Positions 20,838 to 50,091 of a DNA stretch of 64,000 bases are shown piece by piece. The stretch is taken from the NCBI GenBank assembly GCA_040285745.1, contig JAUFOR010000006.1:620001-684000 (forward strand). The letters are read 5' to 3'. The position numbers and the translations under genes are program-made. The DNA is from Barthelona sp. PCE. Its lineage: Eukaryota. The notes beneath the pieces were generated by a model. The model did not search any database, was not told the DNA's origin, and saw only the letters and a list, made by a program, of their open reading frames with translations. Numbering within the stretch: position 1 is the first letter of the stretch; each line of letters starts with the position of its first letter.

Positions 20838-20983
20838 AAAACAGGATTTTAACCTTCGTTTTTGGAGAATCCTTATGCTTCTCAAGGGTTGGTCCAAGAA
20901 TAAAAAGGAAATTGAGTGATGACTACGTTTTTACGTTTTCTCTTTTTACAAAACCATCACACATTAATTTTTTGACTTTTACG

Positions 20984-23900
20984 ATGGTTCCTTGGAGACA
21001 AAAACTAGTTCTTATCTTGTTGTTCGTCCATGTAGCTTTCAGTGCAAATTGTGGTTTCATTGGAGACAACGAAGGTTCTTGGGAGCAAAACGCAAATTGG
21101 GATTGTTTTAAAATACCCTCAGCGGGCGACAGCGTCGTTATCACAGATAAAACCGTTTTAGTTGGCGCAAATCATGACGTAGCATCAATCACACTTGCCA
21201 CAGCTGCATCCGCGCTTCAGTTTGATGTAGAGGTGACAGTTACAGCATCAACATTCACATGGTCAGGGGGTTCAATCCTCGGTCAAGGTAGATTAGAAGT
21301 TAATGCTGGTATGTCATTTGGTTCAGGTGGTACTCGTGTGTTAGGCATCGCCTCGTATCTTATTGTGAACGCAGGCGTTGTCGACGTGAACAACGATGTA
21401 CAGATTAATCTTTCAGATTATTCGCTTCTTTCTTATGCTTCAAGCACTCTTTTTACAATCAAACCCAACGTTAAACTGGCGGTAAACGACCTCTCTACAG
21501 ATGAAAGCCTTATTGGTGAGGTGGAGTTCCATGGTCTTTTTAATATCTCAACAGATGCAATCTTTGAGAATAACGTTAAGTTCACTGGGTATGGATATGC
21601 AATGATCGATGCTGGAACATGGGATATTCGCCACACTGTTAATTTTTTTGGGGAACTATACATTATTAACCATGGTGAAATCAATAATTATGTTGATTCA
21701 TTCCTTGAATCTTCATCAAAACTTCTTGGTGAAGGTGCCATTAACGCCATTGGAGGCACCTTGTACGTGTCATCTTCTCTATTTAAGTTACTAGGTGACA
21801 GTTTTGTTCTTAACGGTGGTAGAGTGCAATTTGCTGAAGAAGGTCACATTGAGTATTATGCTGTTAAATGTTACGATGGTTCTTTAATCTTTGGTTCAGA
21901 ATGTGCTTTCGAACCCTTTCTACACAAACTTGAGATGCACTCAGAGTCGTGTATCATTGAGTTCCAGAGCTCACCTAACTTCTTATTGGATACTGATGTC
22001 ACAGAAAAGACACATTTTGAATTATGGACAACGGGTGGTCAGCTGATCTTACCTTCAGGTGGTATCAGGTCACTGCTCTTTGATTGGCTTAATGTTACAC
22101 GTAATGTATTTACACTGTCTCGCACTGTGCAATGTACGAATGTTGTATTGGGTGATGATTCCAATGTTGTAGCGTCCATTGAGACTAGTTATAACGGAGC
22201 AATGGAGACAGAAAACTTTTTTTGGTATTCTGGTAATGTAACTGGAAAGTCATTGGTAAAAACGACTGGAAAGTTATATATTTACAATGCGTTTGATCGT
22301 GTCATCGGCTACTCGACAGAGCTTCGCGTTGTATCGGGTGAGATGCGTGTTTTTATTGAACCAGAAGAAAAATTGAACGTTTTTATGGATTCTTATTCGA
22401 AGTTTAAGACAGAAAAAGAGGGTATATTGAATTTAGACAGATCAATATCATTCATTGAAATGGATGATGTTCTCAATCGTCCAGATTTTGTTCATCTTGG
22501 TCAGTTGAATATTACTACTTCAACAGTTCAGCTTAAGGTGTTTTCAAATATTGACGGTAATGTTGGTATTGATGTCAACGGTACTCTAAGGTTTGATTCT
22601 GATTCCGTATCAACAGGTTCTGTATGGTTCCAAGACGAAACTGCCACAATGCTATCGGCGAATGTTTCAGAAGTTCAATGGAAGAAGTCTTCTTCGTTCT
22701 ATGGTGAAACAGGTGTAATCACGGCATATCATGAGAGTGAGATGATAATCCAATCAAAGCACTATGATTGTCTGGCGTTGCTAACATCGAAATCTACTCT
22801 ATGCGTTGTACGATTTGAATCACCAGCGTACGTTATGCGATATAATGTCGGAAACTGTACCGATGGCTATGTTGCATTTGACGAGGGTATCACATTCGCT
22901 TATTCAAAACACAATATCGTTGTTGATGGTTGTCTTCTGGAATACGGTGATAGTATCTTGTTTGAATCTGAAAATCCTTACACAGACCCTACAGTACATA
23001 TGAATATGACTGTGCGGTCCGGTAGGGTGGAAATGAAAGAGACAGCAAGCAATCTCATTTTTGATGAACTCATTGTAGACTCAATTTTTGAGACTGGTTC
23101 ATATGTCACAGTAATGCATTGCGTTTTTGGTGAGTCACCACCTGCTGGTGTTACACCGAAGTTTATTGCTGCATGGGGTGCCATGGTAAACTATTATACA
23201 CTCGATTGGCACGCTGGTTCAATTGAGGGTTATGGTCGATTTTTCTCTCTTTTAGCTTTGAATATTAGATCAGAAGCACCCAAGAGCATTGGTTTTGCAA
23301 CTGGGTTTGAGGCTCAGAGTGGATATATTGATGTATTTAACAGTACGAAGGTTGAATGCGCTGATCTTGGTTTTTGGATGTTCTCATCCCTATCTATTTT
23401 CAGGATAAAAACTAATGTTACATTTGAAATCGCTCTTAATCATTCCATTGAGGCTGTTTTCGAGACCAAATTCCATGGTTTCATTAATATCTCAGAAGGC
23501 GGTGAGCTTGTCATGAGCACTCGTGTCGAACAGTATGGTACTCTCTTATCATACGGTGGGATGACATTCAATGGTCCTCTGAACATTACTGAATACATTG
23601 GCTGGGGTGATGTCTACCTCGTTTCCAATGATTCGTTCATTAATATCGCTGGAACAGCAACATTTTCAAGATCAATGCAGTTCATCGGTATGGGTGGATT
23701 GCGTACAAGCGGAGACGGTCTTTGTTACGTTGATTCACAGTTATTCAAACTATTTGGACCAACGTACGCAATTGATGATTCAAACCTTTATTTCACTGGT
23801 GTTACATACATTGAGTACATTGAGATTAATGGTTGCGCTGATAACTCACTCATTGTGTTTGAGTCAGGTGCGCTTATTGCTCCTTTTGTGCTAAATATTA

Positions 23901-26900
23901 CTGTTACAGGTGGTCATGTTGTTTTTGAAGATTCAGTTCAGCTGTCAAGGGAAGATACGTTGTATTTCCACTTTAACCTCTTCCTTGATGGTCCTGGTTT
24001 TCTTAAAATGAATAAGGTAAGCTCTCCAGTATACTTTGATAAGGTTGTTGGTATCGATGGTGGTATCGAGCTTGAGACTGGAGGTATTGTGCCAATTGAG
24101 TTATGTATTTGGAACGGTACTGCCTCCCTTTTGGGTTCAGACCTGGTTGAAATATATGATCTTGAGTGGTACATGGGTGTTTTCGGTTCGATTACGACAC
24201 TCCTTCACAGGGGTTATGTATCGCCACACGCAGGCACAAGCTTCCTCACAGGTTGTATGGTGTATCCACACAGTCAGTTTGTTGTTAAATCAAGTGCAAT
24301 CTTGGAGATTGAGAGTGAAGGAATGTTCCAACTTGGTATCAATGCTACTTTAACAATTGAAGGTGAGATTAAATTCCTTGGTAACGCTTCATTGTTAGCT
24401 GTACCTGAATCAACCTTTGAAATTATCGATGATGGAAAAATGACTGTCGAAAACGGTAACTTCTCTTACGGTTGGTTACTGGAGGATTCCTTCTGTTGTG
24501 TCAAATACAATCAGGACAGAAGTACTCTCTACTCTTATTATGACGAGTCGTTTTTAGCGTTGGTCTTTGATGTTCCATCAATTTGGAATATGTGTCCTAG
24601 TGGAACTTGGGATACGTGTTGTATGCCTTATACTTCACGCGCTTCAACTTGGGAAGATAACATTCCTTACAACGGTCGTGCGTATTACACGTTAGCAAAC
24701 GATACACACATGGGAGATGATGTTGTTAACGCTTCATCATGTTGCATGAAATTGGCTGATAATGACGTAGTTGTTTATCCAGCATGGGACAGTTTTGCAC
24801 CCGAACTGATTGGATGTCGCGATTACACAAGTACACCTGTATATAACCAACGTACAGGTTGTAACAAGAAGTACTGGTATCAGTATTGGGACAATGATAA
24901 TGATGTATGGGTTTGGGCGACCAAGACTCTCTACAACTTTGGTTTCTGCCCAGCGCAAGAGACAATGATGTCATCGAATGCCAATCTTGTGATTGGTCCC
25001 GATGCTCGTGTTGAAGCGCTGAATCATTCTGCGTTCCATCTCTTATCATTTGTCAATGTATTCCATGAGGGTGTTATTCACTGTGACAACACATCAGTGA
25101 TTGCATCTGCAATGGCTGACTTAATCTGGAATGGTAAGTTCCACATTGATGGTGTGTTTGAGATCACATCACCGGTAACCTTCAACACTACCGTACATGC
25201 GTACGGTACAGGAGAGTTCATCAACTTATCCCCCGGTTCAGATGTTCTGTTCAAGGGTAACTATGAGTTGACAGACACCATGAAGTTGGACAGGGGCAAG
25301 TGGGTCTTCTCAGAAGAGTCACTGGTTCGTGATCTTACTTTACTATTGTTGAACAACACCGAGTTTGAGCTAATCAGTAACGCAACTGGTACCCACGTCA
25401 TTGACACGATTGAAGCATTCTCATCATCTATGATATTTGCCAATCTTGATGTTATGTTGCACAAGAAGTTTGTAACAATGGATGATGTTACCCTCAGATA
25501 TGAAAACATCGGTGATTTTGCTGCTAACACATTCCATGTTTCTAGTTGTGATATTGTATTTTCACAACTGCGGACATCTCTTGTTTTTGATAATCTTGTT
25601 TTGTATACCAATTCTAGCATACACTTCAGTGGTTCGAACACATTCCTGTTCGACCAGGAGGAGCCTCAGTATATCACAATCAGTGTATTTGATATGTACG
25701 ATAATGCTGTATTGCAGGGAGATGATGATGTTTACATTTTGGAGTCACGTTTGTATGGTGGTGAGTTCTCAGGCGAAAGCACTGTTTATTTCACATCAAA
25801 AGCGCAATTGTCGCTTAATAGCTCCATATTCTTAACAGGAAGGAGAATTGCTCGTTTTGAGAAGAACATTTCAGTTGACGCATGTTCTGAAAGTTTTATT
25901 TTCGATCAACACTCCAAGATCGTCTTTACTGACAAAATTAACATCAACAGTAACACATCTTTCATCCGTACCAGTTCATATTGCGATGAAGACACATACG
26001 TGAGATTCCAGGGAAACACATATTTGAATGAAGGTGGTTGTATCCACAGTGATGTATCCATTTTCTTTGACAAAGATCAGAAGACTTATCTTCGTGATAA
26101 CAGTATTGGTATGGAAATCCACTGTAGCGGTACATTCATTGATGACTTTTTGTTTGATGAACTGGCAGGTGATATAGTTTTGGGAACGGGTGTCTTTCTG
26201 TTTACAGATAGCAGCCGTCTCATGCTAGATGATGATGCCACATCCACAATTGCGACAGTGAGATCCATCTCGAGTGATTCCGTAGCTACGTTCCTTGGAG
26301 AATTCAACGTTCTCCCCACTTTTACACATCGTGGTGGTAAGTTCTACTTCAATCAGACACTTGTCAACTGGAATTCTATTCTTATTGAGTCGGATGTTGC
26401 AAACACCGAACTGATTCTGAATGGTATTCGGAATATTAGCAATCCCTCATCAAATGATTTGACTTTGGACAGTCTTATTGCCAGATCATCTTTGTTAAGA
26501 ATGTCTGGTTTTGAAGATATTAACATTACATTTGTTGAACTCTCAGAATCTTGGGAACCTGCTTATTTCATTATAGATGATGCTGATACAATCTTTGTTG
26601 AAGACTTTGTATTTACTGGTGGATTCTATGGTGGAGCAACATTATTGAGGACATTTAATTCTACTCTTTGGGAAAAAGGTGGTCTTTTTAATGGTGCTAA
26701 AATTCGTACCTCTACACCATATGTTTCGGTACAAGGTACTGGTTTCAAGCAATTGTTCGACTTTGCATCTTTCGAAGGTGATTATAATATCACACTGAGC
26801 ACTTCAAATCAAACATTTGAGGGATCTCGAGGTGCTGAATTTATCATTTCGGAGGGAAAGGCTGTTTACATCGAAGAATCAACGTATTTCACAACAATTC

Positions 26901-41900: not shown

Positions 41901-44900
41901 CACCCACATTTGTTCAGAACAATGGTACTGTACACATGGATAATATTGAGGCATCATCCTCAATTGATTCCTATGTATTGGCGCTGGGAGATCTCATCAT
42001 CGACTCTGAAGTTTCAGTTGTTGATTTCCATCTGGATTGCACATCAGGTGTAGGTGGTACACGAAACGGAACAGGTGATTTGATTGTGACGAATGACTTC
42101 CTATGGGAATGTGGTGTGCTCGAGGGTGCTTCCGTTATCACAATCATGGATAATGGTACCATTATGGGTGAGGGTTTGAAGGTTCTTCACAATGAAATGC
42201 AGCTTGTTAACAATAAGACTCTTTACTTTGCTGAGGATACTCTTATTCAAGGTGACGAAGCCGATCTTATTAATAATGATTACATGATTATTGATGATGG
42301 AAGTCACCTGTTACACACTAATGTTACAATTGATCGTAACGTAATCACAAACAATGGTTATGTTGATGTTAACACATCGCGTGCTGTTATTATTCAGTGG
42401 GTATTTGAAGACTTTAATTCTTCAGATTTTTGTAATGTAATATTTGGTACAGATGTCACATTCAGTTCAGATATGGAAATTCCTGCTGGATGTCGTGTTG
42501 AATCCACAGCTAACATGGTAAGTTTGAGCAACACTACAATCATTGGTGCAGGTTCTCTTGTTTCAAGTGGAGAGTCTGCAACCGCTATAATATCAGGTTC
42601 AATTAATATGACTGGTACGATTGAAGCAGTTGGTGGAGCGGAAATGACGTTTGATGATACGAGTATTGTTGGTCTTAACATTGTTTCTGATGCATCAACG
42701 ATTCTCATTGATAAGGATGTTGATTTGGTTGAGATGACTCTGGATATTTCGACTGGATCTAATGTAACTGTGTCAACTGGCAACGGTGGTCATATTACAT
42801 CAGTGGGTGTTTCAAATTCAAAGGTTGAGTTCACATCTGACAGTGAGATCTCTCTGAGGTCTTCATCCATTAATGTTGTTGATTCATCTGTTGTGTTTGA
42901 CGGTGATCTCAACGATGAGGGAAGCGTTATTGAACTTCAGAGTGGTAACGTCACGTTTACATCAACTGTTGACGTTAACGATCTTATAATTGGCGAATTC
43001 AAATGTTTGGGAGGAGAAATTTTCATTGAAGTTGATGGTCTCAACGTTGAATCATTTGTACTCGACGGTTGTGATCGCCGTGGTCTTGGTTTACTGCAAG
43101 CTAGCAACATGACCTTGATTTCAGGACGAATGCTCGATGCAGGTATCTCACATGCCAATGATACCCTTTGGTTACCTAATCCTACTGTCACCTTAACAGA
43201 TAGTCATACATTGGAGAACCGTCAGAGCGCAGCATTTTGTGATGGTGATCTTACGCTATCTAATGATGCTAAGATTATCAATAAGGTTTCTGGTACCTTT
43301 GAGCTAATGAATGGTGTAATTTCAACTCCACACACTACAGCTGGAACTAAGCCATATTTTGTTAACGAAGGTACATTGCTCAAGAACGATTCACTCACAT
43401 TCACGCTTGATATTCACCTCGATAACAACGGTGTTATTGATGTTGCTGAAGGTGCAGTCATGATTGGTGATAACGTCACTCTGTCGAATGAAGGAACCCT
43501 CAACGTCGCTGACAGAGTAGGTGTTGTACCCACAGGTACCCTTGAACAAAGACAGAATCTTAATATCACAGAAGGAGGACATGTTGATGTTCAAGGTTCA
43601 TTCTTGAGCAAACCTGCCTCTTTATCAGTTGGTGCTGGTCAGCTCACGTTCGATCACCCTGAAGCTTACGGTTTCATCGAAGGACGTATTGAGAACATGA
43701 CTTGTATTGAACACAATGATGGAGAGCTCATTTTCGACTCACCTACATGTTCTGTTCCTGATTTGTGTGTAATTTCATATGCACTTCTGAACATTTCGGA
43801 ATGTGCTGTTACATACAGTAATATTACAGTACATGAAGGTAACACTAATCTTTTGGCTGATGCAGTTATTCCTGAGTTCCACACACTGTTTGTGGATGAT
43901 GGTCTCTTCACTGCATTCAAAGACACTGACATCACTTTGACAGGAACGGTCGATGTTGAGGGACAGGGAACAGTATTATTTGATAGTGATTCTGATGTTA
44001 AGGGAACAACTAAAACAAATGTATCAATGAGTAGCAGCGATGCAGCTCTTATTGTTGAACCATTGAAGTCTGCTCCATTGATGATTCATTCATTATTATT
44101 GAATAACGGTAATTTAACATTGAGATCTAATGTTAAGTCTTATAATGCCAACCTCACATCTGGTATTGTTGATGGAACTTCTGTTCTTGAGACCGACAAG
44201 ATGATTCTTGATGAGACAAAACTAACCGAATCTGTCACAACACGTGTATTAGATGATGGTCATATTAGAGGTAACGCTGTTGTTGATGAGAATCACGAGA
44301 TTGTATTTGTCAATGCAGGTCTTGGTGATCATGACTTTGATTTGTTGGATTCTGCTAAGCTTACTATTTTAGATGGTGGTAGTGTAACATTTGGTAACAC
44401 TACTATTAGTAGTGTACCCACAGCAAAAATTGATGTACATGGTCAAGTCCGTTTAGATGGATCATTCTTGACTGATGCAAACTTCACAATGTATCCTGAT
44501 GCCGTCATGCGTGTTAGTAATTCTGGTAATAATATTACTGGTGAATTTAACGCATTATGTCGATCATACATCACTGTTGAAGCAGATGCTCAGTTGCACT
44601 TATTCAACCAGTCTGTTGTTTGTGGTGATGTTGATATATCAGGTATCTTGTCATCCGAGGCAGGTGTTCATGAGTTCAAAGATTCACTTGATACATCAGG
44701 CGACGGAATATTCCTAATTAACAACGGTTCTGTAACTAACAAGGCTGATTCTATTGCTCTCAACACCGTCTCTGAAGGTGGTGAGTTCCTTCAAACTCCT
44801 AATGCAAATACCATCAACTGGCTGGTCGATGGTTCCACTGGTTTTATTATCGCTAATGGTTCGACAACAGCTATGGCAACCAACACAACAGGTGCTCATC

Positions 44901-47900
44901 TTACATTTGAAAAGAACGCTGTCGTGCAGAGCGTCATTGGTTCTATTGGTGGTGACTGTGATGTTCTTCCTGATTCCGACGTTAATGCTGTTGACGTTAC
45001 TTTTGTTGAGGATGGAAAGACTGTTGTTGCTGATGGTGCTAAGTTTAAGTGTGATGGTTGTTCGCTTACCTTAAACGACCAAGGAAACGTGAAGATTAAC
45101 AATGCTGGAGGTTCATCGACCTTGACCAATATTGTGTATGTTGGTAACAACGGATCTTCACTCATTGAATCTGATCAAGTATCCTTTGATTCAATCATAA
45201 TGAATGAAGGTATGCTCGGATTGAGTATGATAGATACCTCTCCTGCAGAGATTAACGCTGTTACAATGAATGATGGCGCCCTAGTTGGTACCGATGCAGT
45301 GTTTACAACTGCTACATTCTACGGTGGTAACTTTGGTTTCGATAACGCAACAATTGTTGATGATATCAACATGTTGTCAGAAGGAAACTTTACGTTCATG
45401 GAAGATTCCGTTACCAACATTGCATTCCCACTTATCGTTGACAGCACAGCTGACTTCCGCATGGATGCAAACTCGATCATCAACATTGATGGTAACATCA
45501 CTGGTGAAGGCGATTGGTCATGTACTGATGTCTCTGCTGATCAGTCTGCAGCTTGGACTGCTGACAGCCTTCTGGTAAAAAGCGGTGATTCACAATTGTG
45601 TGGAACTCTGACTCTTTCAGTGTGTAACGTTTCTGCCCTGGGTGGAGCAATGGTATTTGATGAACTCATTACTGATTGTGACATTCATCTTGATGGTGGT
45701 GCTGTCGGTTCAAAACGCCCGTTCCAACTCAATAAGAATGCTGTTATTGGTCCCTCTGGTACATTCATTGGTCAGATTGATGCGCATGGTGTTATTTTGC
45801 CACGTGATAAGATTACCTTCATTGGTAACCTGACAATGCAGCCAACAACACTGTTTGATGTTCGTTTATCCAATATCACAGAGTTTGATGCTCTTAATGT
45901 TACTGAGCATGCACACTTTGATGGACGCTTCCATCTGCGCTTCAGTTTAGAGTCTGAATTCGATAGAAGTGCAGAATTTGTTTTTGTACCTTACGGAAAT
46001 CACTCTGGTGCCTTCAATAACTTTACAGGTAACTGTATTTACAATTTCGGAATGAAGTTTACAGAAGAGCACTTTAAGTTGGTTGTTGGTCGTTCGATTG
46101 TTGACGATCTTCCAACAAATGTATTCCTTTGGCAGCACGGTCACGATACTATCTGTTGTGGAACGTTAGATGCTCCATGCCGAACTTACAATTACGCGTT
46201 AAGTCGTTCTATTCCATATGATACTCTTGTCTTTGCTAATGGTACTTACTCTGGTGAAGATCATCTTCCTATGAGAGTGACTCTTGAACATCCCGTGAAC
46301 CTTGTTCATGAAGATGATGGTGAGGCAATTATTGATTGTGAGTATGGTCCGCATCACGCAATCAGTCATCACGGTATTTACGAGTCGAGTGTTGTAGTTC
46401 GTGATATTTCAATTAAAAACTGTTATGAGCCACTCCATGTATCTCACAGTATGGTTGATCTTCAAGATATTGCGATTGAAAATTCGTGGGGTGATGAGTT
46501 CGGAGCTATTCTTATTAAGGGATCATTAGTTACTGCCAAGGGACTTCGCATTGATAACTCCACTGCCAATGACTTTGGTTCAATCCTTGTTCAGGCAGGT
46601 TCTAATGTTACATTGGATGACATTGTTATCAGCAACGTTTCATCTGTAGCTGGCCACGGTTCTGCACTTGCGGTCTATAACTCCTTATTATCTGCTAATT
46701 CTATGAATGTAACAGATAACGAGTGCGCTTCTAAATACGATCGTCTCATTGAGATGTTCGCTTCCAATATTAACTTCACACAAACTCATGTTTCTGAAGT
46801 TTGTGGTGGTGTGATGCTGGCTGAAGATTCAACAGTCGGTCTTGACAAAACACGTGTATCATCAGTCAGCAATTCACACATTGGTGGTGTCCTTGACGCT
46901 TCTAACTCTGTAATCTTCGTTAATGACATGACTGCCTCTGACATAACTGGTTATTCAAACTGTTTCGTTCATATTGAAGAGTCAGAAGCGTCATTCGAGA
47001 ACGTAAATGTTTCCGAATTACACTGTTCTGAACAGGCTGTTGCTTACGTACGTGATTCTGATGTTGATCTAAATTCCATGACTATCAATCCATTTGATAG
47101 AATTCTGGATTCTGCGCCCATTGTTGCTAACATGAGTCAGATTGCAGTTAACAGTTTGAATGTAAGTGATATTGTCGTTCAAGATGGTGCTGGTGTTCTT
47201 GAACTTTATAGCAGTGAAATTACTGTTGATGGTTCACGAATTAATAATATTACTTCAACGCTTGGTGCGATCTATGCACACAAATCTCCAGTTGAAATAA
47301 CAGATTCCAACATCTCTGGATCAAGTACAAACGGTGTCGGTGCTGCTGTTCACACAGTTGATACTCCTAGTGTTGTTATTTCGAACTCAACCTTTGAGGA
47401 CAACGAGGCGCTGGTCGGTGGTGCTATTGCTGTACAAGGCAACGCTTCCATCCATGATAACGCGTTCCGCCGCAACCGTGCAGAAATTGCAGGTGGTGCA
47501 GTCGCGTTTGTTGATCCCAACACTCCCTTCAACGAGTCCAACCCAAGCGTCGACGACTTGTTCATGTCTCATGAGGACGACATCAGTGATAACTCTATTG
47601 CTGACAACCAGTTCTCGAGCAACACCGCTGGAGACATTGGAGGTGCCTGGTTCTCGAATCTTAAACAGGTTCCGACCAATGCAGACGCAGACAGTAACTC
47701 GTATTACGCCAATGAGGCGGATTCTTACGGTGCTGATGCTGCAACCGATCCGCGTAAGCTACGCGTGTCTGTTGACGAACCCTTCGATGAGCAATCAGAG
47801 ACCGAGCCTAAGAAACATGTGCATGTTGTTGTTGTTGATGGATTTAATACTTCCGTTGTAGACAGCACACTGCGTCGTCTCTCTTTGGCTCCGTCCTCAG

Positions 47901-49855
47901 CTCTCTTTAGTATTCGCGGTGTCTTGTCTCAGTCTTCTGCCAGCGGACAGCAGTCGTTCAACGATCTTGTTGTTTCTGGCTCACCGAACGAATACCGAAT
48001 CGATGTATCGACACCTGGACTGATCAGTGGCTCTGGCCTCGTCAACGTTAACCGTTGTCCGATCGGTGAAGGTCTTTATAGTGGAGAGTGTCGATTATGT
48101 CCAGAGGGTACCTATTCCGATGAACCCAGAGCCACGAGCTGCACCCAGTGCGCTCCTGGTTTCTGGACTGACGGAACAGGATCCCTCGACTGTCAGCCAT
48201 GTGTTGCCGGTAGCTACCGCAATGAAACCATGTTCGGTTGCCAACGCTGTGATGAGTCGTCGTTCAACTTTGTTCCCGCCTCTACCACTTGCGATGTGTG
48301 CCCTCTGAATCAGGTTTCTGACGAGTCACGTACTGCATGTCAGTGTTTCGGTGACACATTCCCCCTCACTGATACAGAGTGTATCCCGTGTCCAGATGGA
48401 ATGATGTGCTTCGGTGGCAACCAAACGTGCGTCCAACGTGGTTATTTCAAGGATTCCGACGGCACTGTCAAGCGCTGTCAGTCCGCTGGTTGTCCCGGCA
48501 CTTGCTCCAGTTTGCAGGCAAGTAGCAATGCAACCGAGCCTGAAGCGTTCTGCGACGACGGCTATTTGGGTGCAGATTGCTCGCTTTGCGAAGAGGATAG
48601 CATGAAGCTCGCACCATTGTGCGTGAAGTGTCTTCCTCCGTGGTTGACCATCGCACTGTACGCCCTGCTTCAACTACTTACTATCTCTACAATCGTCATG
48701 ATTGTTGCTGACGTCAAGATGAAGTTCCCATCCATCTCATCGTACATGCCGCTCATGATTTTCATGCAGATACTGGGTTCATTCCATCGAACCTCCCCAC
48801 AGCAACTGCCTGGCAGCTTGCACTGGGTCTTCATTGTATGCGATCTTATGTTCCTCGACCTGTCTCGAGGACATCTTCTGGGATGCGTGTGGCCGCCTGC
48901 CAAGACATTCGCCTTCAGGTATTACTACCACGCTGCACTTCCTATTATCGCTCTGATTGGCACACTTTTCAAGTTCAAGCGCCATGCTTCGAAGCTAGAA
49001 AAGGCCGATTTCCGCTCCTACCGCTGGGTCCAGACGTTTGTTGTGCTCGGCATGGCAATGTTTGCGCCCGTCTACCACGTGATCTTGGAGATCGGTGGCT
49101 GTAAGGAGCTAAGCGGGGAATGGGTGCTCGCAACTGACGTCACAGTCAGGTGTTTCACTTCAGAGTGGAAGTCGTTCCTCATCCCCAGTATTATCTTTGG
49201 TGTTGCTCTGCTTGTGATGGGTGTTATGATGGGTAGAGGACAGAAAGTTTCGACGCTTAACTCAGACGATATCACAAAAGCAGATAATTTGAAGCAAGCT
49301 GTTGCTTCAGCTCTCAATGCACCTTATAAGGCCACTGGCTTCGGAAACCAGATCATCATCTTCTTGTATGAGCTTTTCCTGGTCGGTGCTCTCTTCTTGT
49401 TGGTGAACCATCCTCTTACACAATCGTTAACTGCATTGTTTATTGCAGTTGTTGGTTTCATCATTCATCAAACGCGCATGCCATATAGCCCGCAAGACAG
49501 TAATCGTCTCGTTTCCATTTACCACATGTGTACAGTTGTTATCCTTTCATTCTGGGTGATCTGTGCCTTGGATCCTGAGTCGACATTGCAAGACGAGTCT
49601 TCGGGTCTCATTTCTTTAATCTTGCTCCTATTTGTAGCCGTTAACCTCATAATGGCTATAATTACCATTGTTCTATCTCTTTTGCATCGTAAAGTGTACA
49701 AGGTGGACAATAATAACAACATGTTCCGACCCAACCGTCTAATGAATCCTCTTGTAGCTGTTGCTAATACCACTCCTAGATCGTCAATTTCGAGTGTTAT
49801 GAACAATTTTGAAGATTTAAATGTTGACGATGACATGTTTTCCGATTTTGCGTAG
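20984..49855 (+). CDS. Giant (~9,623 aa) cell-surface protein: signal peptide, beta-solenoid repeats, Pmp-type beta-helix, Cys-rich repeats, ~9-TM C-terminal domain
   Basis: Uninterrupted 28.9-kb ORF. ATG 20984 gives the signal peptide MVPWRQKLVLILLFVHVAFSA. Other motifs: W..NANW....P...D.V.I cap, recurring W.GG motifs, CGTLDAPCRT, FxxNxA..GGA[I/V/W] x3, CPEGTYS/CAPGFWT/CVAGSY repeats, and multiple TM helices from ~48641. Confidence 0.95.
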   Translation: MVPWRQKLVLILLFVHVAFSANCGFIGDNEGSWEQNANWDCFKIPSAGDSVVITDKTVLVGANHDVASITLATAASALQFDVEVTVTASTFTWSGGSILGQGRLEVNAGMSFGSGGTRVLGIASYLIVNAGVVDVNNDVQINLSDYSLLSYASSTLFTIKPNVKLAVNDLSTDESLIGEVEFHGLFNISTDAIFENNVKFTGYGYAMIDAGTWDIRHTVNFFGELYIINHGEINNYVDSFLESSSKLLGEGAINAIGGTLYVSSSLFKLLGDSFVLNGGRVQFAEEGHIEYYAVKCYDGSLIFGSECAFEPFLHKLEMHSESCIIEFQSSPNFLLDTDVTEKTHFELWTTGGQLILPSGGIRSLLFDWLNVTRNVFTLSRTVQCTNVVLGDDSNVVASIETSYNGAMETENFFWYSGNVTGKSLVKTTGKLYIYNAFDRVIGYSTELRVVSGEMRVFIEPEEKLNVFMDSYSKFKTEKEGILNLDRSISFIEMDDVLNRPDFVHLGQLNITTSTVQLKVFSNIDGNVGIDVNGTLRFDSDSVSTGSVWFQDETATMLSANVSEVQWKKSSSFYGETGVITAYHESEMIIQSKHYDCLALLTSKSTLCVVRFESPAYVMRYNVGNCTDGYVAFDEGITFAYSKHNIVVDGCLLEYGDSILFESENPYTDPTVHMNMTVRSGRVEMKETASNLIFDELIVDSIFETGSYVTVMHCVFGESPPAGVTPKFIAAWGAMVNYYTLDWHAGSIEGYGRFFSLLALNIRSEAPKSIGFATGFEAQSGYIDVFNSTKVECADLGFWMFSSLSIFRIKTNVTFEIALNHSIEAVFETKFHGFINISEGGELVMSTRVEQYGTLLSYGGMTFNGPLNITEYIGWGDVYLVSNDSFINIAGTATFSRSMQFIGMGGLRTSGDGLCYVDSQLFKLFGPTYAIDDSNLYFTGVTYIEYIEINGCADNSLIVFESGALIAPFVLNITVTGGHVVFEDSVQLSREDTLYFHFNLFLDGPGFLKMNKVSSPVYFDKVVGIDGGIELETGGIVPIELCIWNGTASLLGSDLVEIYDLEWYMGVFGSITTLLHRGYVSPHAGTSFLTGCMVYPHSQFVVKSSAILEIESEGMFQLGINATLTIEGEIKFLGNASLLAVPESTFEIIDDGKMTVENGNFSYGWLLEDSFCCVKYNQDRSTLYSYYDESFLALVFDVPSIWNMCPSGTWDTCCMPYTSRASTWEDNIPYNGRAYYTLANDTHMGDDVVNASSCCMKLADNDVVVYPAWDSFAPELIGCRDYTSTPVYNQRTGCNKKYWYQYWDNDNDVWVWATKTLYNFGFCPAQETMMSSNANLVIGPDARVEALNHSAFHLLSFVNVFHEGVIHCDNTSVIASAMADLIWNGKFHIDGVFEITSPVTFNTTVHAYGTGEFINLSPGSDVLFKGNYELTDTMKLDRGKWVFSEESLVRDLTLLLLNNTEFELISNATGTHVIDTIEAFSSSMIFANLDVMLHKKFVTMDDVTLRYENIGDFAANTFHVSSCDIVFSQLRTSLVFDNLVLYTNSSIHFSGSNTFLFDQEEPQYITISVFDMYDNAVLQGDDDVYILESRLYGGEFSGESTVYFTSKAQLSLNSSIFLTGRRIARFEKNISVDACSESFIFDQHSKIVFTDKININSNTSFIRTSSYCDEDTYVRFQGNTYLNEGGCIHSDVSIFFDKDQKTYLRDNSIGMEIHCSGTFIDDFLFDELAGDIVLGTGVFLFTDSSRLMLDDDATSTIATVRSISSDSVATFLGEFNVLPTFTHRGGKFYFNQTLVNWNSILIESDVANTELILNGIRNISNPSSNDLTLDSLIARSSLLRMSGFEDINITFVELSESWEPAYFIIDDADTIFVEDFVFTGGFYGGATLLRTFNSTLWEKGGLFNGAKIRTSTPYVSVQGTGFKQLFDFASFEGDYNITLSTSNQTFEGSRGAEFIISEGKAVYIEESTYFTTIPGMILPTFGVNARNNKDVSIPLEYSVASSDPYPMLRVLGTLNISNTFVSDWFVEVAQPLYILPGIEVRIAGGIFSGYISLPNVDNGEEPSSLAFIGPTIIESGAQLNGTGSVITADADAYVRFGGAWNLGDKIEIFKGVFHFLPGSKFYFKNVTSHEGDIIFHEDPHIDSTQWMMDEVKVLGGNVIFDGMTKQLNIEMLLIEEGSVQFLNLDHPIILGGMKITGGRVDFGKLNQPLILKLLEVENATVSFNTSFPVTIHKFYTRGSANIISYDELVMTNDTLIAGGKLNGHNITFTESCVTAFTNGSTLHSMLADSTNVYVHGPLYFDHKTMLHAAPTARLFAYNNVTMFGELDLRTLSSNSASGNSVFEMGSLVVMEHFDSFVSSNPGDVIVGFADWFRSGYSGETVITTTIDLVFDSIWQINSHFRTDFKSIGNITDTASVIISDEEAVLGFSDSAQFDFFEGSSLVVDGTFYCVDNAKVTFAGYQRFTSNFIELNGCHVSFVGNVDFNIDDLRVTNGILEFNSVRAAQSFNFSTIAINGNMSVPQAAEIRYVSIPTDIIVQAFTCANGTFTVDDASSFTFEEDSVTLVDSTFELLNIATEFVQKTLIFNNSLTRMDKIYVNITHLIANSAFIRLYDFHTASIIEGIELFGEIIPPHTSYIMFNSTDELLTVNHIEHHGSELYTYNPTGTHILDYNWMGGSVAYSSEFHVDVLHITTDASRYLIDVNTFVVVDEYMEWTNGDFISDDGCGIKIASSAEVNITTSVRHSYFNDPYHRLPYQEKIHSIVRPFFQVDGVMNLDIGIGNVFYTRMSSIINGNLQLISGDLRIFANMHITGNVTFMCENKEDAKIIIEYGRITISETGLLYGPDIGYIEIGNQGELTSDGNVMVDHFEIISGILMLNAGNITIMNLVQNGGIVGFGSASYGYVEVADLSCGEFVLNGTNVYLNETHADSMGFFSYDQPVNRTHGRLYSLSSIFYGNLLRYDYVQVGVARFAIERLEIMLNMTFMDMVDGNAYFVMDKDSVLFLQGDSHWYVSDPDVETTAFMISGNQIINNGSMFFHGSHRFVQKQRYDANYWKNEASNFTNLVDGIVLVDSDSSFNYGFYFDGNFHNYGYVEVVNSKLVLNGTVEAFAYPNSVVRLSPKDDSCIAHLLLANSEFTFLVNSSYEGWGGLLASTVKTDIFHFKGRYNAQPHLVWNSIGQLYFYDESTFDFENITLTAGILKFFDTCENSTFFHIEELHVDGGSLIFENGTCDILVDLYEHTDGLWSLSGFDHSMNITHWIDRGGETVLHDIIELNLFLFESPSSRPETTIENVDRLILHNFKPKFGDVFFNDINDVMIWNNSYDGSSKTIFDNIGTVNISNNNPTGGVMEFHNIHVSFSASEMFEQSAGSLYLYDFDFSMVFDSIYIRDTGSLFFFTGHTVTVDNIYVDDGRIGGSDDLVIEWNLYWYGGTLGIESGDIGHWTVTNHTYIEHDKSHTLERIVITTGTGITSRDNYHMSGYHSELVVNSDKLFHIHDSPLYVANASSSDVPKLTVNGDVVADNGGYFGFQLMLKPGSTWTTTNGNQIFGCGGGVIEGTISLPENSVFKLTQYQDQISPRVCYNHFTFTGSSIVEPSTLIETLVDNQCEVDFYGLLLGDTIRSVSNSKVKFFPNARHEIMYSYMDYGQITFDRTIYNITGTEAPLNWTIHSYCTGRGTNVLHFNDMISNVSIPQDFEYTCGCRYRFEDFDEADLIMPDMAIISGAHFEFFEPWRQPLVFDELLLGHSCSIVDFSTGHDIVVNNYEMRYGNHYGWDQLIVNTVEWTGVSLREGHIDVLDSLEFVGTSNKYIGANAGIESFNYTLVDAPSTMTFGHDGYIKTHNKTDVTENMKLSGSGTFFLKDDVDIDTTWEMHSYVDVAEDTLVTVQPPNDLYLGVCDVRGNISMPGDQFLFLVRSPSTNEQHSFGPTSVLEGQHSNIYVNYGLNVVFNGMWLFEPKISLTQYATLKFQYPAVMNITELYASIGSIILEDVQSLNGTLDLESALTKGTGHIFFDKFNDTLKLQTLTIDGGITEFKDIEDLSYFDELVIKGGYLIFATGQDVTFRSLRIEGGFRSGGDRVIVDEFYWSSGGFVGVKDSSNPVETVVNGRAIIESNSGKYMAWESRLDIYGDLEMSGSDYIHSCQKTNYIRYYGNNATITGGHKFRNYKGYCSLYGSAPTYYIDRFNKQPIRCGYSGGVCTWYAKAYCYNYGSAGASYVNFLNYGNATYENGYFTHEESGFAFVGNNTAKNFAFTTRTGYNFANDSYLELHNGSVLTSYYGNTVVHHTASIVEVLDDSVEGLILPPPRITFAQSYSHPSCSQCRCFQLPTWDVYGKLVLSEGLYIPFGSIRFHANSTLLADIITVNGLSRIACTGRCGTQSTSHYNGRIYIDPVEPQLTVRKLTLHGNDNSQGIVYFNQDREGIFEEIHMDGGAIGGKDNVTVTEKLTWESGSFFDGVTVRSENVLQFVGPSKKYINGQTTVITEKETVFSGTGTLMLIDGATFQNNGDLSIESSTVIESGGSVRSSFLNNGTFTVREPTEEFFVKAMFDSIENSTVQLLAGDTYVLEGGSFRGNISIPNNQTRLFIGKSDYHSPFASEPVWLFTEESTYEMYGQMIVQERGHVQFKGSVYSNTTMISENGILTFHDNCTVLKLDDLIVRGSSGEINYFDVNGTVWLDSVYQYDGSVNFLTGDICHINTLWIEDGLRGGSDTVYIHDLLHWEGGGFNYNSTTVVKTHANVLKSASSRLFDNATLINEGVLYFPVASASKETVKEANLRAGNGARLINTFNATMKVHHDIRMDLIDFTDEAEFINNGVLEAKTRHFYSKLACKNHQEIYIDGDFRCLRGGYSNHTIFIEPEGKFGVANEFFIEHGSSLLGSKGLIHLNDDSAAAKLDPEPPGILHVHGMFNMTDISVYDVGQILIYSDADISNSTTILLSGSNITIDTREFPVAFNKITLKDGYFFACTSHLVYIKEMTISGGFRGCSDEIIIEDAFYWERGGLMDNGTTSSQTLTKILNTSPFIMLLPPFIRPSLNLQLLDNSTFINRGLCETIFKANLRGDPNTTIVNEGDWVTIKPMKFAMPWDTTLVDVTNEAEDYAYFVDHYELGIYDDKATFINRGQLYGQEDDPSADDYLVGLDFQADWRFVLEDGNFTLNFPKFVTELNYGYRGSEGGIHMTEDTELVISSDFVFEQNSTFTGYNTVIRVNNGSTLVLGGYYCVTGPKSIFIGSGRLIFTSTTQFCEGAILPLCGINITIDSVLPVNIYGLSLDCGSCRLGPGLLHLKQFKFMNGCLAENGTTKIEENMDVMTEADHLLLDDHMLINDGKSKIHPGSVLSGVNATLHNTEDSTVSVCGGAMITDIPDSNHTLLIHNDGWVAKDCGSKDDLASVATDFYQTSTGTFYIDLGYFTLDGKNVTLFGDLYIAQEGIYPVDVDRTVDGTGTFTIECGGLVPIAANATLTVSRMLFNYSSSCSYDIDSGAMLFSDDARVMYFDNVIDGAAMIYEDIHCDYVTLGEVTLKNGGVLNVSTDCDVVVDDLIIDDGIRYGTSTVTTNEVNWKEGGFSGAGKTVFNDGIIYSNNDHIADNGTNLWIGNSLTYMSGDLDFSGGSILNVTHGATFIFPPLAAERTIKGDAASYMYNYGSIEKNGTGDVSVAAAFSNYQSIHVMEGRFIIDSDTVSLNFGNITIEEDCEVHLSSCRLKDQSVFDGAGDLYVTGEVVVEQGANFELTGCIYIMEGGTLIFQSLTREEINICGIYEDGELVMESSEITQVTVDFVDKGAITGTMSDYSLYVGTFNNATFTNDNGVLANLTIDEIFADSEIEISVSTLNAIFFPDVRNSTLSFLGCTSVFNELNLNDVDFSIVTGPRAEFVDTVYVFENNSNIEIVSQVYLNETEFIISENTNVSVSSRMEGVFSRIELLSNSGLFLPDYTVKEFVFNTGRLDDNTKLYVEHIMFVNDSLKDFGENVNVTVYDSIEWFDGEIFGENENTFMYCTDTCVLDITAVDDVMSVPFNMSNYDRPLLITDNVTNVKGAGNVTIQWRWNINGDVHVDTGKYLILDGPTVVDNSDIYIGADGLLDLKSNFTLQQNCSIDADGNVAVTDPDSWVSLNGTFSVRQTFWVDDGLTDLRYCQIPEMHLDWTDGIILFREAWGRDIYIPLIYDDFVEFVEENEFNSITVGEMVHYNLDLGPCFFNWSVIHKISGGDTNLYPNGTILSMKFLDIEGGNVTFHPDFTADIPVMEVNGGEVTFMEGTNVTIDSFNATSNGTIRIEQYSVNDDFLERVHAIDESVIDITADINRFIIELITEDNATVVNPNTYNTFSEWDWIGGGLGDGTNAIVEGDMTISSCDPHSIHTGAVLNITKLTNAVVLGCDGCGSCGGIIMHPDSAIYVNSEGLITFEDSPQGIGVWKLEEGSSNLPIFQIEENAALIVKDTAPGVEFDVPLVIDNGGEFNITGGGWVTISDPADIAGDLYICDTCTLEINSTMTVTGKIYGNGTVLIRDDGYLDIVNVCEAGLEYIVDEGLMRVNRDAMCSGIDAEMAHNGTLIFDGTVDGVTDLHIHDEGKVQVTNTAVLTQLKNVLVESGERNTTYLHLQGGIDVTLHPDSVMTVDTGLIHLDTDANVKGNCPSFVIDDGEVLLEENAFANSPEHRIICDVTVNGGLLNVSTGSIEEIKRLTINDGVVGKGTSIIHVSTALDWTNGLVDIDTVALAGSVNSFTTSGIKAIGSDVNVQLSGVTTVSAGTVFFNNRSTILVDGDMVVDGQSVFEPETFGDEGETLITVTGALTTMCAGQQVDFHVNITAEDNGDVTINNCIAVSDANVLFDDLSTLSIVNSGRLYIENTFKQEIDARISGSDNLIVNHTDAIAYIHGEVDMTGSVIVQGGMARFYGGYDAVDVSVVADGVDSHIEFLDAVTHNIDITVDNMGTVDFISNLVDSINSIQVVNGSVTFRNNVDVTLNGNVVVNHGTLAISEVSKLTMSTPTFVQNNGTVHMDNIEASSSIDSYVLALGDLIIDSEVSVVDFHLDCTSGVGGTRNGTGDLIVTNDFLWECGVLEGASVITIMDNGTIMGEGLKVLHNEMQLVNNKTLYFAEDTLIQGDEADLINNDYMIIDDGSHLLHTNVTIDRNVITNNGYVDVNTSRAVIIQWVFEDFNSSDFCNVIFGTDVTFSSDMEIPAGCRVESTANMVSLSNTTIIGAGSLVSSGESATAIISGSINMTGTIEAVGGAEMTFDDTSIVGLNIVSDASTILIDKDVDLVEMTLDISTGSNVTVSTGNGGHITSVGVSNSKVEFTSDSEISLRSSSINVVDSSVVFDGDLNDEGSVIELQSGNVTFTSTVDVNDLIIGEFKCLGGEIFIEVDGLNVESFVLDGCDRRGLGLLQASNMTLISGRMLDAGISHANDTLWLPNPTVTLTDSHTLENRQSAAFCDGDLTLSNDAKIINKVSGTFELMNGVISTPHTTAGTKPYFVNEGTLLKNDSLTFTLDIHLDNNGVIDVAEGAVMIGDNVTLSNEGTLNVADRVGVVPTGTLEQRQNLNITEGGHVDVQGSFLSKPASLSVGAGQLTFDHPEAYGFIEGRIENMTCIEHNDGELIFDSPTCSVPDLCVISYALLNISECAVTYSNITVHEGNTNLLADAVIPEFHTLFVDDGLFTAFKDTDITLTGTVDVEGQGTVLFDSDSDVKGTTKTNVSMSSSDAALIVEPLKSAPLMIHSLLLNNGNLTLRSNVKSYNANLTSGIVDGTSVLETDKMILDETKLTESVTTRVLDDGHIRGNAVVDENHEIVFVNAGLGDHDFDLLDSAKLTILDGGSVTFGNTTISSVPTAKIDVHGQVRLDGSFLTDANFTMYPDAVMRVSNSGNNITGEFNALCRSYITVEADAQLHLFNQSVVCGDVDISGILSSEAGVHEFKDSLDTSGDGIFLINNGSVTNKADSIALNTVSEGGEFLQTPNANTINWLVDGSTGFIIANGSTTAMATNTTGAHLTFEKNAVVQSVIGSIGGDCDVLPDSDVNAVDVTFVEDGKTVVADGAKFKCDGCSLTLNDQGNVKINNAGGSSTLTNIVYVGNNGSSLIESDQVSFDSIIMNEGMLGLSMIDTSPAEINAVTMNDGALVGTDAVFTTATFYGGNFGFDNATIVDDINMLSEGNFTFMEDSVTNIAFPLIVDSTADFRMDANSIINIDGNITGEGDWSCTDVSADQSAAWTADSLLVKSGDSQLCGTLTLSVCNVSALGGAMVFDELITDCDIHLDGGAVGSKRPFQLNKNAVIGPSGTFIGQIDAHGVILPRDKITFIGNLTMQPTTLFDVRLSNITEFDALNVTEHAHFDGRFHLRFSLESEFDRSAEFVFVPYGNHSGAFNNFTGNCIYNFGMKFTEEHFKLVVGRSIVDDLPTNVFLWQHGHDTICCGTLDAPCRTYNYALSRSIPYDTLVFANGTYSGEDHLPMRVTLEHPVNLVHEDDGEAIIDCEYGPHHAISHHGIYESSVVVRDISIKNCYEPLHVSHSMVDLQDIAIENSWGDEFGAILIKGSLVTAKGLRIDNSTANDFGSILVQAGSNVTLDDIVISNVSSVAGHGSALAVYNSLLSANSMNVTDNECASKYDRLIEMFASNINFTQTHVSEVCGGVMLAEDSTVGLDKTRVSSVSNSHIGGVLDASNSVIFVNDMTASDITGYSNCFVHIEESEASFENVNVSELHCSEQAVAYVRDSDVDLNSMTINPFDRILDSAPIVANMSQIAVNSLNVSDIVVQDGAGVLELYSSEITVDGSRINNITSTLGAIYAHKSPVEITDSNISGSSTNGVGAAVHTVDTPSVVISNSTFEDNEALVGGAIAVQGNASIHDNAFRRNRAEIAGGAVAFVDPNTPFNESNPSVDDLFMSHEDDISDNSIADNQFSSNTAGDIGGAWFSNLKQVPTNADADSNSYYANEADSYGADAATDPRKLRVSVDEPFDEQSETEPKKHVHVVVVDGFNTSVVDSTLRRLSLAPSSALFSIRGVLSQSSASGQQSFNDLVVSGSPNEYRIDVSTPGLISGSGLVNVNRCPIGEGLYSGECRLCPEGTYSDEPRATSCTQCAPGFWTDGTGSLDCQPCVAGSYRNETMFGCQRCDESSFNFVPASTTCDVCPLNQVSDESRTACQCFGDTFPLTDTECIPCPDGMMCFGGNQTCVQRGYFKDSDGTVKRCQSAGCPGTCSSLQASSNATEPEAFCDDGYLGADCSLCEEDSMKLAPLCVKCLPPWLTIALYALLQLLTISTIVMIVADVKMKFPSISSYMPLMIFMQILGSFHRTSPQQLPGSLHWVFIVCDLMFLDLSRGHLLGCVWPPAKTFAFRYYYHAALPIIALIGTLFKFKRHASKLEKADFRSYRWVQTFVVLGMAMFAPVYHVILEIGGCKELSGEWVLATDVTVRCFTSEWKSFLIPSIIFGVALLVMGVMMGRGQKVSTLNSDDITKADNLKQAVASALNAPYKATGFGNQIIIFLYELFLVGALFLLVNHPLTQSLTALFIAVVGFIIHQTRMPYSPQDSNRLVSIYHMCTVVILSFWVICALDPESTLQDESSGLISLILLLFVAVNLIMAIITIVLSLLHRKVYKVDNNNNMFRPNRLMNPLVAVANTTPRSSISSVMNNFEDLNVDDDMFSDFA

Positions 49856-50091
49856 GTTTAGAAGCTTTGTTTTTCATTTATTTTTGTGATTCCAAAACCT
49901 ACTATGTTGTGTTATTCTTATTCAATCATCTTATTAATAAAATTATTGTGAAAATTCGTGTTTGAAACTTTCATCTAAGGCAACTAAAGTTATTGAATGG
50001 TCAAGAAAAACGTTTCAAAAATTTCGAAACTTTGATCTACGTTTTCACTTTCTCATCCTTTTCATCTTTATTTCGTTTTTATATTGCCTCA

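Follow-up and report, generated by a model that had tools for sequence, protein, structure and literature searches.

What kind of protein does a very small eukaryotic genome maintain in a reading frame of more than nine thousand codons, and what could such a protein do? The frame in question lies on the forward strand of a 64,000-nucleotide stretch of DNA from the metamonad Barthelona sp. PCE (GenBank assembly GCA_040285745.1, contig JAUFOR010000006.1, positions 620,001 to 684,000; this whole stretch is referred to below as the window, and positions are counted from its first letter). It is a single open reading frame (ORF) on the + strand, 20912..49855, of 9,647 amino acids when counted from a TTG codon. 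The Barthelona genome is reported to comprise 10.2 Mbp in eight contigs assembled from Nanopore and Illumina reads, with a GC content of 40.3% and 5,064 predicted proteins; among free-living eukaryotes it is reported to be the smallest known (PMC11316075). The giant gene occupies about 0.28% of these 10.2 Mbp, and an investment of this size in one gene argues that the protein matters to the cell.

Our analysis indicates that the gene encodes a protein in which an N-terminal extension of some 8,200 residues is fused to a compact membrane protein, made up of a capped beta-helix, a cysteine-rich neck, a nine-helix membrane domain and a short tail; we hold this domain order, and the homologies described below, with high confidence. 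Sequence comparisons support the assignment of the membrane block to the Flc/Pkd2 (PF06011) superfamily, as a divergent member. An earlier note on this DNA, drawn from the letters alone, had proposed an undescribed system; the protein is indeed uncharacterised, while its architecture is widespread in protist protein sets and is not new. The layout of beta-helix, Cys-rich neck and PF06011-type domain is already present in databases, and the protein is an extreme variant of a widespread, uncharacterised family. What is new is the 8,200-residue extension with the scale of about 1 MDa that it brings, the pairing of minimal and extended forms in one lineage, a junction region and a tail motif confined to barthelonids and skoliomonads, and an apparent absence from public annotation. 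The features of the gene, all on the + strand, are as follows.

20984..21043, +: start codon (first ATG) and signal-peptide-like N-terminus by hydropathy, residues 1-20, MVPWRQKLVLILLFVHVAFS
21044..45682, +: N-terminal extension, residues 21-8233, acidic and sequon-rich, with diverged modules of 270-720 residues, probably a three-sided beta-solenoid
45683..46138, +: junction region, residues 8234-8385, kept in giant relatives and absent from minimal ones
46139..47773, +: right-handed beta-helix domain, residues 8386-8930, from PF13229 and motifs
47774..48043, +: linker, residues 8931-9020 (90 residues), conserved with relatives and colinear with P0005 and P0007
48044..48628, +: Cys-rich neck, residues 9021-9215, of Ephrin_rec_like / GCC2_GCC3 type
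48629..49711, +: membrane domain, residues 9216-9576, with nine helices of transmembrane (TM) length and a short helical hairpin, from AlphaFold2 and hydropathy
49712..49852, +: cytosolic tail, residues 9577-9623 (47 residues), with the motif FRPNRLMNPLV at about 49724-49756
49853..49855, +: stop codon

The gene and its reading frame

The first in-frame ATG of the ORF stands at 20984, where the start had been placed before, and gives a protein of 9,623 residues followed by a stop codon, with a mass of 1,054.8 kDa (about 1.05 MDa) and an isoelectric point of 4.38; the earlier description of a single-exon giant of about 9,600 residues is retained, with the rounded figure replaced by the exact one. 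This is by far the longest of the 17 ORFs of at least 300 residues in the window, none of which overlaps it. By our own arithmetic from the base composition of the window, about 6.5% of random codons would be stops, so that a chance origin of so long an open frame is excluded. With the preceding gene ending at 20837 and the following ORF beginning at 49993, the giant gene lies in tightly packed DNA. GC content ranges from 0.33 to 0.47 across the window; it is 0.43-0.47 over the conserved core of the gene (46000-50000) and 0.37-0.41 over the extension (21000-46000), which is more AT-rich than the part held in common with minimal relatives.

A frame of this length could in principle be an assembly chimera, or a dead gene no longer expressed as one protein, and the public record gives this explanation some footing: the exact 9,623-residue protein is not in a collection of 15 billion proteins that does hold the product of a neighbouring gene, and a search of relatives with the TM block returned no self-match. 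Several features of the locus speak against an artefact, which we regard as very improbable. The ORF keeps 9,647 codons free of stops in AT-rich DNA, Tandem Repeats Finder reported no repeats in 20900-49900, and the dispersed DNA repeats of at least 30 nt inside the ORF amount to a single 31-nt pair of 74% identity. With no real DNA repeats, and with protein modules that are only 20-30% identical to one another, repeat-driven misassembly or collapse is no concern, and the chimera that the earlier note had named as a possible undoing left no sign in these searches. The order of the domains is colinear with that of transcript-derived relatives, and the gene has a signal peptide, a stop codon and compactly arranged neighbours. 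In public annotation the giant gene seems to be lacking, or to have a very different model, and so represents a concrete annotation gap in the public protein set. The neighbouring EMP70 product is found in the same collection at 100% identity.

Relatives of the giant protein define a conserved core

The nearest relatives are proteins of barthelonid and skoliomonad metamonads and take either a minimal form (about 1,250 residues, from the cap onwards) or a giant form; relatives at a greater distance are found in Mantamonas, Anaeramoeba, Telonema, Ceratiomyxa and metagenomes. P0005, P0006 and P0007 derive from a barthelonid transcriptome, and P0009, P0012, P0014, P0015, P0032 and P0051 from the genome records of a second barthelonid and of three isolates of skoliomonad type; the minimal paralogue P0015 belongs to Barthelona sp. 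PCE according to its NCBI name. In BLASTP, a colinear core of 1,240-1,390 residues is common to the barthelonid and skoliomonad relatives at 22-26% identity (244-488 bits). Colinear alignments of P0005, P0014, P0032 and P0051 start at residues 8233-8263 of the giant, those of the minimal P0009 and P0015 at residues 8376-8386; P0005 aligns to residues 8234-9616 with 26% identity and 488 bits, and P0014, P0032 and P0051 behave alike. Three short relatives (P0009, P0012 and P0015; 1,233-1,275 residues) pass from a signal peptide directly to a '...PC(R/Q)(T/S)' cap, from which it follows that the complete minimal form corresponds to residues 8386-9623 of the giant.

Six other sequences (P0005, P0006, P0007, P0014, P0032 and P0051; 1,226-4,993 residues) begin inside solenoid sequence with no signal peptide and are probably 5'-truncated models, so that giant members may be under-reported in the organisms concerned. 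The giant relatives on record measure 2,885-4,993 residues, their solenoid modules align to residues 4476-7698 of the query, and the number of modules varies greatly among family members. With the N-termini of nine relatives inspected, the query is the only giant complete from signal peptide to stop. In P0005 and in P0007 a single assembled transcript holds both solenoid modules and TM block, arranged in the same order, which shows that a relative expresses the fused architecture as one mRNA. A word search for giant full-length relatives among proteins of 5,305-16,883 residues, in which 481 candidates were scored, gave none at E<=1e-3, and a literature search for PF06011 joined to Ephrin_rec_like or Pmp families had no PF06011 among the matches listed; a full-length orthologue already characterised, which would have overturned the earlier proposal, appeared in neither.

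The signal peptide, beta-helix and Cys-rich neck

Residues 1-20 of the giant look like a signal peptide, as had been noted before, with basic residues followed by the hydrophobic stretch LVLILLFVHVAF (Kyte-Doolittle (KD) hydropathy 2.28); by the -3/-1 rule we infer cleavage after AFS. Strongly hydrophobic 19-mers are otherwise confined, in a hydropathy scan of the whole protein, to three spots in the ectodomain and to residues 9216-9564. The protein as a whole is acidic (D+E 12.8% versus K+R 5.2%), its commonest residues are S, G, V, L, T, D, I and N, and it carries 212 N-x-S/T sequons where about 107 would be expected from composition, a twofold excess.

The beta-helix domain opens with the N-cap motif CGTLDAPCRT (46157-46186), which the earlier note had read as a beta-helix cap and which does lie within the Beta_helix domain. 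PF13229 (Beta_helix) matches residues 8729-8832 above its gathering threshold (27.1 bits versus 25.9), a second region at residues 8467-8579 reaches 22.1 bits, and DUF1565 matches residues 8386-8476 weakly (E 0.03). Three Pmp-type FxxN...GGA motifs, FEDNEALVGGAI at 47393, FRRNRAEIAGGAV at 47465 and FSSNTAGDIGGAW at 47612-47650, fall within 86 residues inside the beta-helix. Pfam Chlam_PMP (PF02415) gave no match on the giant even at E<=10, and NCBIfam TIGR01376 POMP_repeat, with a cut-off of 15, scored 20.5 bits (E 3e-4) on a 167-residue piece and 10.7 bits on a 787-residue piece; the Pmp repeats proposed earlier are present at the level of motifs and not of the Pfam family.

The 90-residue linker that follows matched no Pfam family, and leads into the Cys-rich neck. 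Here PF07699 (Ephrin_rec_like) exceeds its gathering threshold in two stretches (24.7 bits versus 23.1; 23.1 bits in a scan of 2,123 residues), in accordance with three CxxCxxGx[YFW] repeats at 48089, 48140 and 48191; these are the Cys repeats of the earlier note, all of whose quoted motifs were recovered at the positions it gave. Residues 9001-9500 contain 29 Cys. The neck attracts many BLAST matches to Cys-repeat proteins, and a search for relatives with residues 9000-9647 found three proteins only, via Cys repeats and at 20-31% coverage.

The membrane domain and its link to PF06011

An AlphaFold2 model of the TM block, built with a 39-sequence alignment, has a mean predicted local distance difference test (pLDDT) score of 83.5 and a predicted template modelling score (pTM) of 0.83. 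It contains nine helices of TM length, which together with hydropathy bears out the earlier estimate of about nine, a short helical hairpin after helix 2, an amphipathic helix carrying LNAPYK, and an extracellular beta-hairpin with two near-invariant Cys at residues 9373 and 9390; in the family alignment, block residues C181 and C198 are at least 90% conserved. A single-sequence model of the last 651 residues (pLDDT 40.7) was discarded. The three TM motifs picked out before, LATDVTVRCF (49127), LNAPYK (49313) and MPYS (49478), coincide with conserved columns of the family, which comprise a Cys-x16-Cys loop with Y-L-x-x-D, an L-Y-x-x-Y-K helix and a P-Y...N stretch. The predicted topology is N-out/C-in with nine passes, which fits the extracellular hairpin and the cytosolic tail of the model.

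We compared the 431-residue TM block with 1.84 billion (1.84e9) protein representatives using phmmer, which gave 42 matches at E<=1e-3, five at E<=1e-10 and one at E<=1e-30. PF06011 is found in 14 of the 42 at E<=1e-3, nine of them above the gathering score, alongside Ephrin_rec_like in 10, Beta_helix in four and Chlam_PMP in two; 12 carry no family. Six of the PF06011-positive relatives (P0011, P0016, P0018, P0020, P0025 and P0027) match the query at phmmer E 4.5e-9 to 4.9e-5 and score 35.8-46 bits on PF06011; the lowest E-value is that of P0011 (4.5e-9), which scores 38.4 bits on PF06011. Alignment of ten family TM blocks to eight PF06011-positive proteins with hhalign gave a probability of 99.3% (E 7.9e-21) over 205 columns. 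Neighbours of the TM block in the Atlas are 'TRP C-terminal domain' and Ephrin_rec_like+TRP clusters (scores 0.92-0.94) from green algae, haptophytes, sponges and cnidarians. These data bear out the resemblance to Flc/Pkd2 TRP-like domains that the earlier note had inferred, and place the block in that superfamily as a divergent member.

No tie was found between the Flc/Pkd2 superfamily and the canonical six-TM TRP or polycystin channels. PKD_channel and Ion_trans had no Pfam match in the last 451 residues at E<=10, where only DUF7134 (E 0.0026) and L_HMGIC_fpl were listed. Comparison of the model with 48,161 chains by VIA-align gave a best Z of 6.6 (Hrd1), within the noise range of the tool for helical bundles, and no TRP or polycystin among the best 50 rows; when 39 TM blocks were combined into a profile and searched against the PDB sequences, 29 weak rows came back at E<=10, again with no TRP or polycystin.

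Across its relatives the same TM domain stands under varied ectodomains (by Pfam: DUF285, TIG, RCC1+Pmp, or 11 Ephrin repeats), so that a PF06011-type membrane domain appears as a modular base for very different ectodomains across eukaryotes. In the metagenome-type P0022 (661 residues) it is followed by TIR_2 (108 bits), and in P0046 (413 residues, also metagenome-type) by EF-hands; P0046 matches the query weakly, at E 9.9e-4 and over its first 142 residues only.

The cytosolic tail is modelled with pLDDT below 55. About 20 residues past the last helix it holds a motif, N-x-[LI]-x-N-P-[LF]-[VA], that recurs in nine of the 12 tails aligned. Of the barthelonid and skoliomonad members only P0007 is without it, and it is missing from the Mantamonas and Anaeramoeba relatives; its conservation points to a conserved cytosolic partner. 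One relative's tail reads NPF, which we take to be the classical ligand of EH domains.

The N-terminal extension

The first 8,200 residues after the signal peptide are repetitive in a way that survives statistical controls. When chunks of the sequence were compared with the protein itself by BLAST, 113 off-diagonal matches were obtained (best 83 bits), against 0, 4, 0, 0 and 3 in five block-shuffled controls. A landmark of the form '...GG.R.GG.D.V.V...L.W..G.F.G' recurs at spacings of mostly 270-720 residues, and its W-x-x-G-x-hydrophobic part occurs 17 times, where 200 shuffles gave 2 on average and never more than 6. Autocorrelation of hydrophobic residues, of Gly and of Gly/Asn/Asp peaks at lags of 7, 13-14, 20-21 and 41-42 (z up to 8.4 versus block shuffles), the pattern expected of a three-sided beta-solenoid with 20-21 residues per coil. 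Self-BLAST also joins residues 7104-7328 to residues 8530-8782, in the region that is Pfam-positive for Beta_helix.

Profile and feature searches point in a similar direction. A 14-module profile searched against PDB gave four rows, among them the Awp14 A-region (7qpk_A; E 0.0084, 19.2 bits, a marginal match) and a 'putative adhesin' (3ljy_A; E 0.12). Weak leads from the Atlas feature search (recognition 1,425) were Hyphal_reg_CWP, autotransporter beta-solenoid and rOmpB passenger, the lead that bears on Hyr/Iff/Awp A-regions scoring 0.89 with low recognition; Pfam Hyphal_reg_CWP reached E 0.41 on the extension, which is sub-threshold. Scattered sub-threshold matches were all that a Pfam scan of 28 ectodomain pieces of 600 residues returned at E<=1 (best CsgH, E 0.0065), and a plain-sequence search of PDB gave no rows for the first half of the protein and 16 for the second (E 0.28-0.59), all through the Cys repeats.

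Taken together, these results suggest that the extension consists of at least 15 diverged modules, most likely three-sided beta-solenoids with coils of 20-21 residues, and on the strength of the periodicity and the weak profile matches the ectodomain is probably a beta-solenoid. The earlier note had counted some 8,300 residues of beta-strand repeats; about 8,200 acidic, sequon-rich and repetitive residues bear this out, the solenoid itself being deduced from sequence and not from a structure. If the modules are stacked end to end, they would form an acidic, glycosylated rod of about 0.2 µm (an estimate from about 430 coils at 0.48 nm each).

Such an ectodomain would also suit a passive giant adhesin or coat fibre, in which the nine-helix domain served only as an anchor or sorting device, with neither flux nor signalling. 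The ectodomain makes up more than 95% of the protein, is acidic and sequon-rich, and is weakly adhesin-like by its profile and feature matches; module number is variable among members, as in adhesin families; and the query departs from two charged TM positions conserved in the family, with no channel-like fold found by Foldseek, VIA-align or the PDB profile. For anchoring, however, a single TM helix or a lipid anchor would do, whereas here a nine-helix domain of 360 residues has kept its disulfide hairpin and motifs from barthelonids to fungi, which suggests an activity of its own. The same TM domain is elsewhere fused to TIR or EF-hand modules, and the tail motif is conserved. We consider a purely passive fibre a serious alternative, though on balance an unlikely one.

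A proposed working of the protein

We propose that the product is one plasma-membrane glycoprotein of about 1.05 MDa, which would amount to a 'minimal receptor' with an enormous N-terminal extension. The minimal unit (residues 8386-9623) consists of the capped beta-helix, the Ephrin_rec_like neck, the nine-helix PF06011-type domain and the NxLxNPLV tail. The rod would reach out from the cell and bind bacteria or substrate; load or contact at its tip would reach the membrane domain by way of a stiff beta-helix and a neck rich in disulfides; this domain, like reconstituted Schizosaccharomyces pombe Pkd2, would admit Ca2+ under stress, and the conserved tail motif would recruit a cytosolic partner. 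Three observations suggest that the membrane domain does more than anchor the protein. Its conservation extends from metamonads to fungi, it occurs with many unrelated ectodomains and in single cases with TIR_2 or EF-hands, and reconstituted S. pombe Pkd2, alone among the family, is reported to show stretch-activated Ca2+ permeation (PMC9727806). Surface location, adhesion, ion flux and force coupling are each inferred here, and a mechanism that couples adhesion to ion flux is offered tentatively, as a reading we would put at somewhat less than an even chance.

The Barthelona cell is described as about 4.7 x 2.9 µm in size, eating bacteria via a ventral groove and attaching to substrates by its posterior flagellum (PMC13087550); this ultrastructure paper makes no mention of a surface coat, hairs, glycocalyx or extrusomes. 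The same description of a phagotroph with prominent food vacuoles (PMC13087550) could be turned towards an internal membrane (endoplasmic reticulum (ER), food vacuole or cytopharynx), with the long part lumenal and a Flc-like role in transport or Ca2+ release, and PF06011 proteins of fungi are reported to occur on the ER in addition to the plasma membrane, as flavin carriers or Ca2+ regulators (PMC9600462, PMC11333956). A rigid, heavily glycosylatable rod of about 1 MDa nevertheless appears ill-suited to lumenal housekeeping. Both Ephrin_rec_like repeats and beta-helices of the Pmp type typically belong to extracellular proteins, and no retention signal was seen, although none was sought. An internal location is accordingly improbable in our estimation, well behind a passive fibre.

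Several observations weigh against a receptor with a Pkd2-like membrane domain. PF06011 itself ('TRP', gathering threshold 28.5 bits) does not match the query even at E<=10, and the link to it is transitive and covers block residues 128-337 only; in the hhalign alignment, moreover, Gln takes the place of a conserved Glu in the query, and Tyr-Glu that of a conserved Arg-Lys. TRP_N (PF14558), the ML-like domain of the fungal proteins, has no match in any Pfam scan of the giant. The check by AlphaFold and Foldseek that the earlier note had proposed yielded a confident model and no convincing match to polycystin or any other solved structure: Foldseek gave no matches at E<=1e-3, with TM-scores of at most 0.2. 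No PF06011 member has a solved structure; the failed match does not show that the fold is new, and the fold gives no independent support for a channel. The fungal members have also been called flavin carriers and ER proteins (PMC9600462), which leaves the activity of the family unsettled. On the ectodomain side, the extension matches no Pfam family either in 4,000-residue pieces or in 28 overlapping 600-residue pieces, and the support for a beta-solenoid in the first 8,200 residues is statistical, the PDB match being marginal. To these is added the absence of the exact protein from the public collection, described above.

The boldest form of the coupled mechanism is a single-chain, tether-gated mechanosensor, in which the pull of a bacterium or of the substrate on the rod of about 0.2 µm would directly gate Ca2+ entry. 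This we regard as doubtful, but its consequences would be considerable: the minimal paralogues of 1,250 residues would be a short-range version of the tether-gated device, the PF06011 domain would prove to be a 'contact-to-calcium' transducer, ancient and pan-eukaryotic, whose ectodomains can be exchanged, and the giant would provide the cleanest natural case of filament-to-channel force transmission within one chain. The wider family gives the question weight, since PF06011 proteins are essential or important in fungi while neither their structure nor what they actually do (as channel, flavin carrier or Ca2+ regulator) is settled.

Neighbouring genes

Among the 16 neighbouring ORFs of the window, ten clearly match Pfam families of eukaryotes (ADIP, protein kinase, eIF4E, Mem_trans, DEAD helicase, WD40, cohesin SCD, eIF3I, EMP70 and PTPA) and six do not. 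All are uninterrupted, which points to a compact, intron-poor protist genome. Five ORFs of 300-875 residues on the - strand have no Pfam family at E<=1e-3 (5225-6184, 6200-7102, 11372-12985, 13049-15061 and 15163-17790). A second large ORF on the + strand (60065-64000) runs off the window with its 3' end open, and encodes at least 1,311 residues with a clear signal peptide; it is rich in Gly, Asn, Thr and Val, looks solenoid-like and has no Pfam family. It was considered as a paralogue of the giant and set aside, as it has no BLAST match to it at E<=1e-3; it may be a giant surface protein too, from some other family.

Comparison with known systems

The earlier note had likened the protein to polycystin-1, and this comparison is reduced to an analogy of layout, in which a very long extracellular region sits on a multi-pass domain, here of a family historically named 'Pkd2/TRP-like'. 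Polycystin-1 and -2 have 11 or 6 helices where the query has nine, and Pfam scans of the giant contain none of the REJ, GPS and PLAT domains of polycystin-1, nor PKD_channel.

A further comparison is with the beta-helix adhesins. Chlamydial Pmp and autotransporter passengers combine FxxN/GGA motifs with a right-handed beta-helix, as the query does, and among the A-regions of Candida glabrata Awp and Hyr/Iff proteins that of Awp14 is weakly similar in profile to the query modules; a beta-helix fold and a role in adhesion are reported for Awp proteins (PMC8746771, PMC8634165). In contrast to these adhesins, the query has no autotransporter barrel, glycosylphosphatidylinositol (GPI) signal or cell-wall signal and is anchored by a multi-pass domain; Pfam finds no autotransporter beta-barrel, and the C-terminus is helical.

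The fungal PF06011 proteins (S. pombe Pkd2, Trp663 and Trp1322; Saccharomyces cerevisiae Flc1-3; Cryptococcus Flc1) have a homologous membrane domain, and resemble the query in their signal peptide, in an N-terminal domain outside the cell, in some nine TM helices and in a cytosolic tail that is disordered; S. pombe Pkd2 has been modelled with nine TM helices below its extracellular domain (10.1101/2022.08.11.503631). Roles proposed for the family include flavin carrier, ER Ca2+ release and plasma-membrane channel (PMC9600462). Fungal members measure about 700-800 residues and bear a small ML-like/Ig-like lipid-binding ectodomain (PF14558), whereas the ectodomain of the query is composed of the Cys-rich neck, the beta-helix and 8,200 residues of solenoid modules.

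The closest counterparts in architecture are protist proteins that combine a beta-helix or Pmp region with Ephrin_rec_like repeats and TRP_C (P0033; P0024 of Telonema; P0021 of Anaeramoeba; P0008 of Mantamonas), in which the parts follow one another in the same order. These are proteins of about 900-2,300 residues, to which the query adds the 8,200-residue extension, the junction and the lineage-specific tail motif. The junction region is common only to the barthelonid and skoliomonad giants, in contrast to the other protist relatives, and the minimal members of the same two groups lack the extension. A form of 1,250 residues and a seven-fold extended one thus exist side by side in one lineage, and offer a natural series in which the effect of the ectodomain on the membrane domain can be followed.

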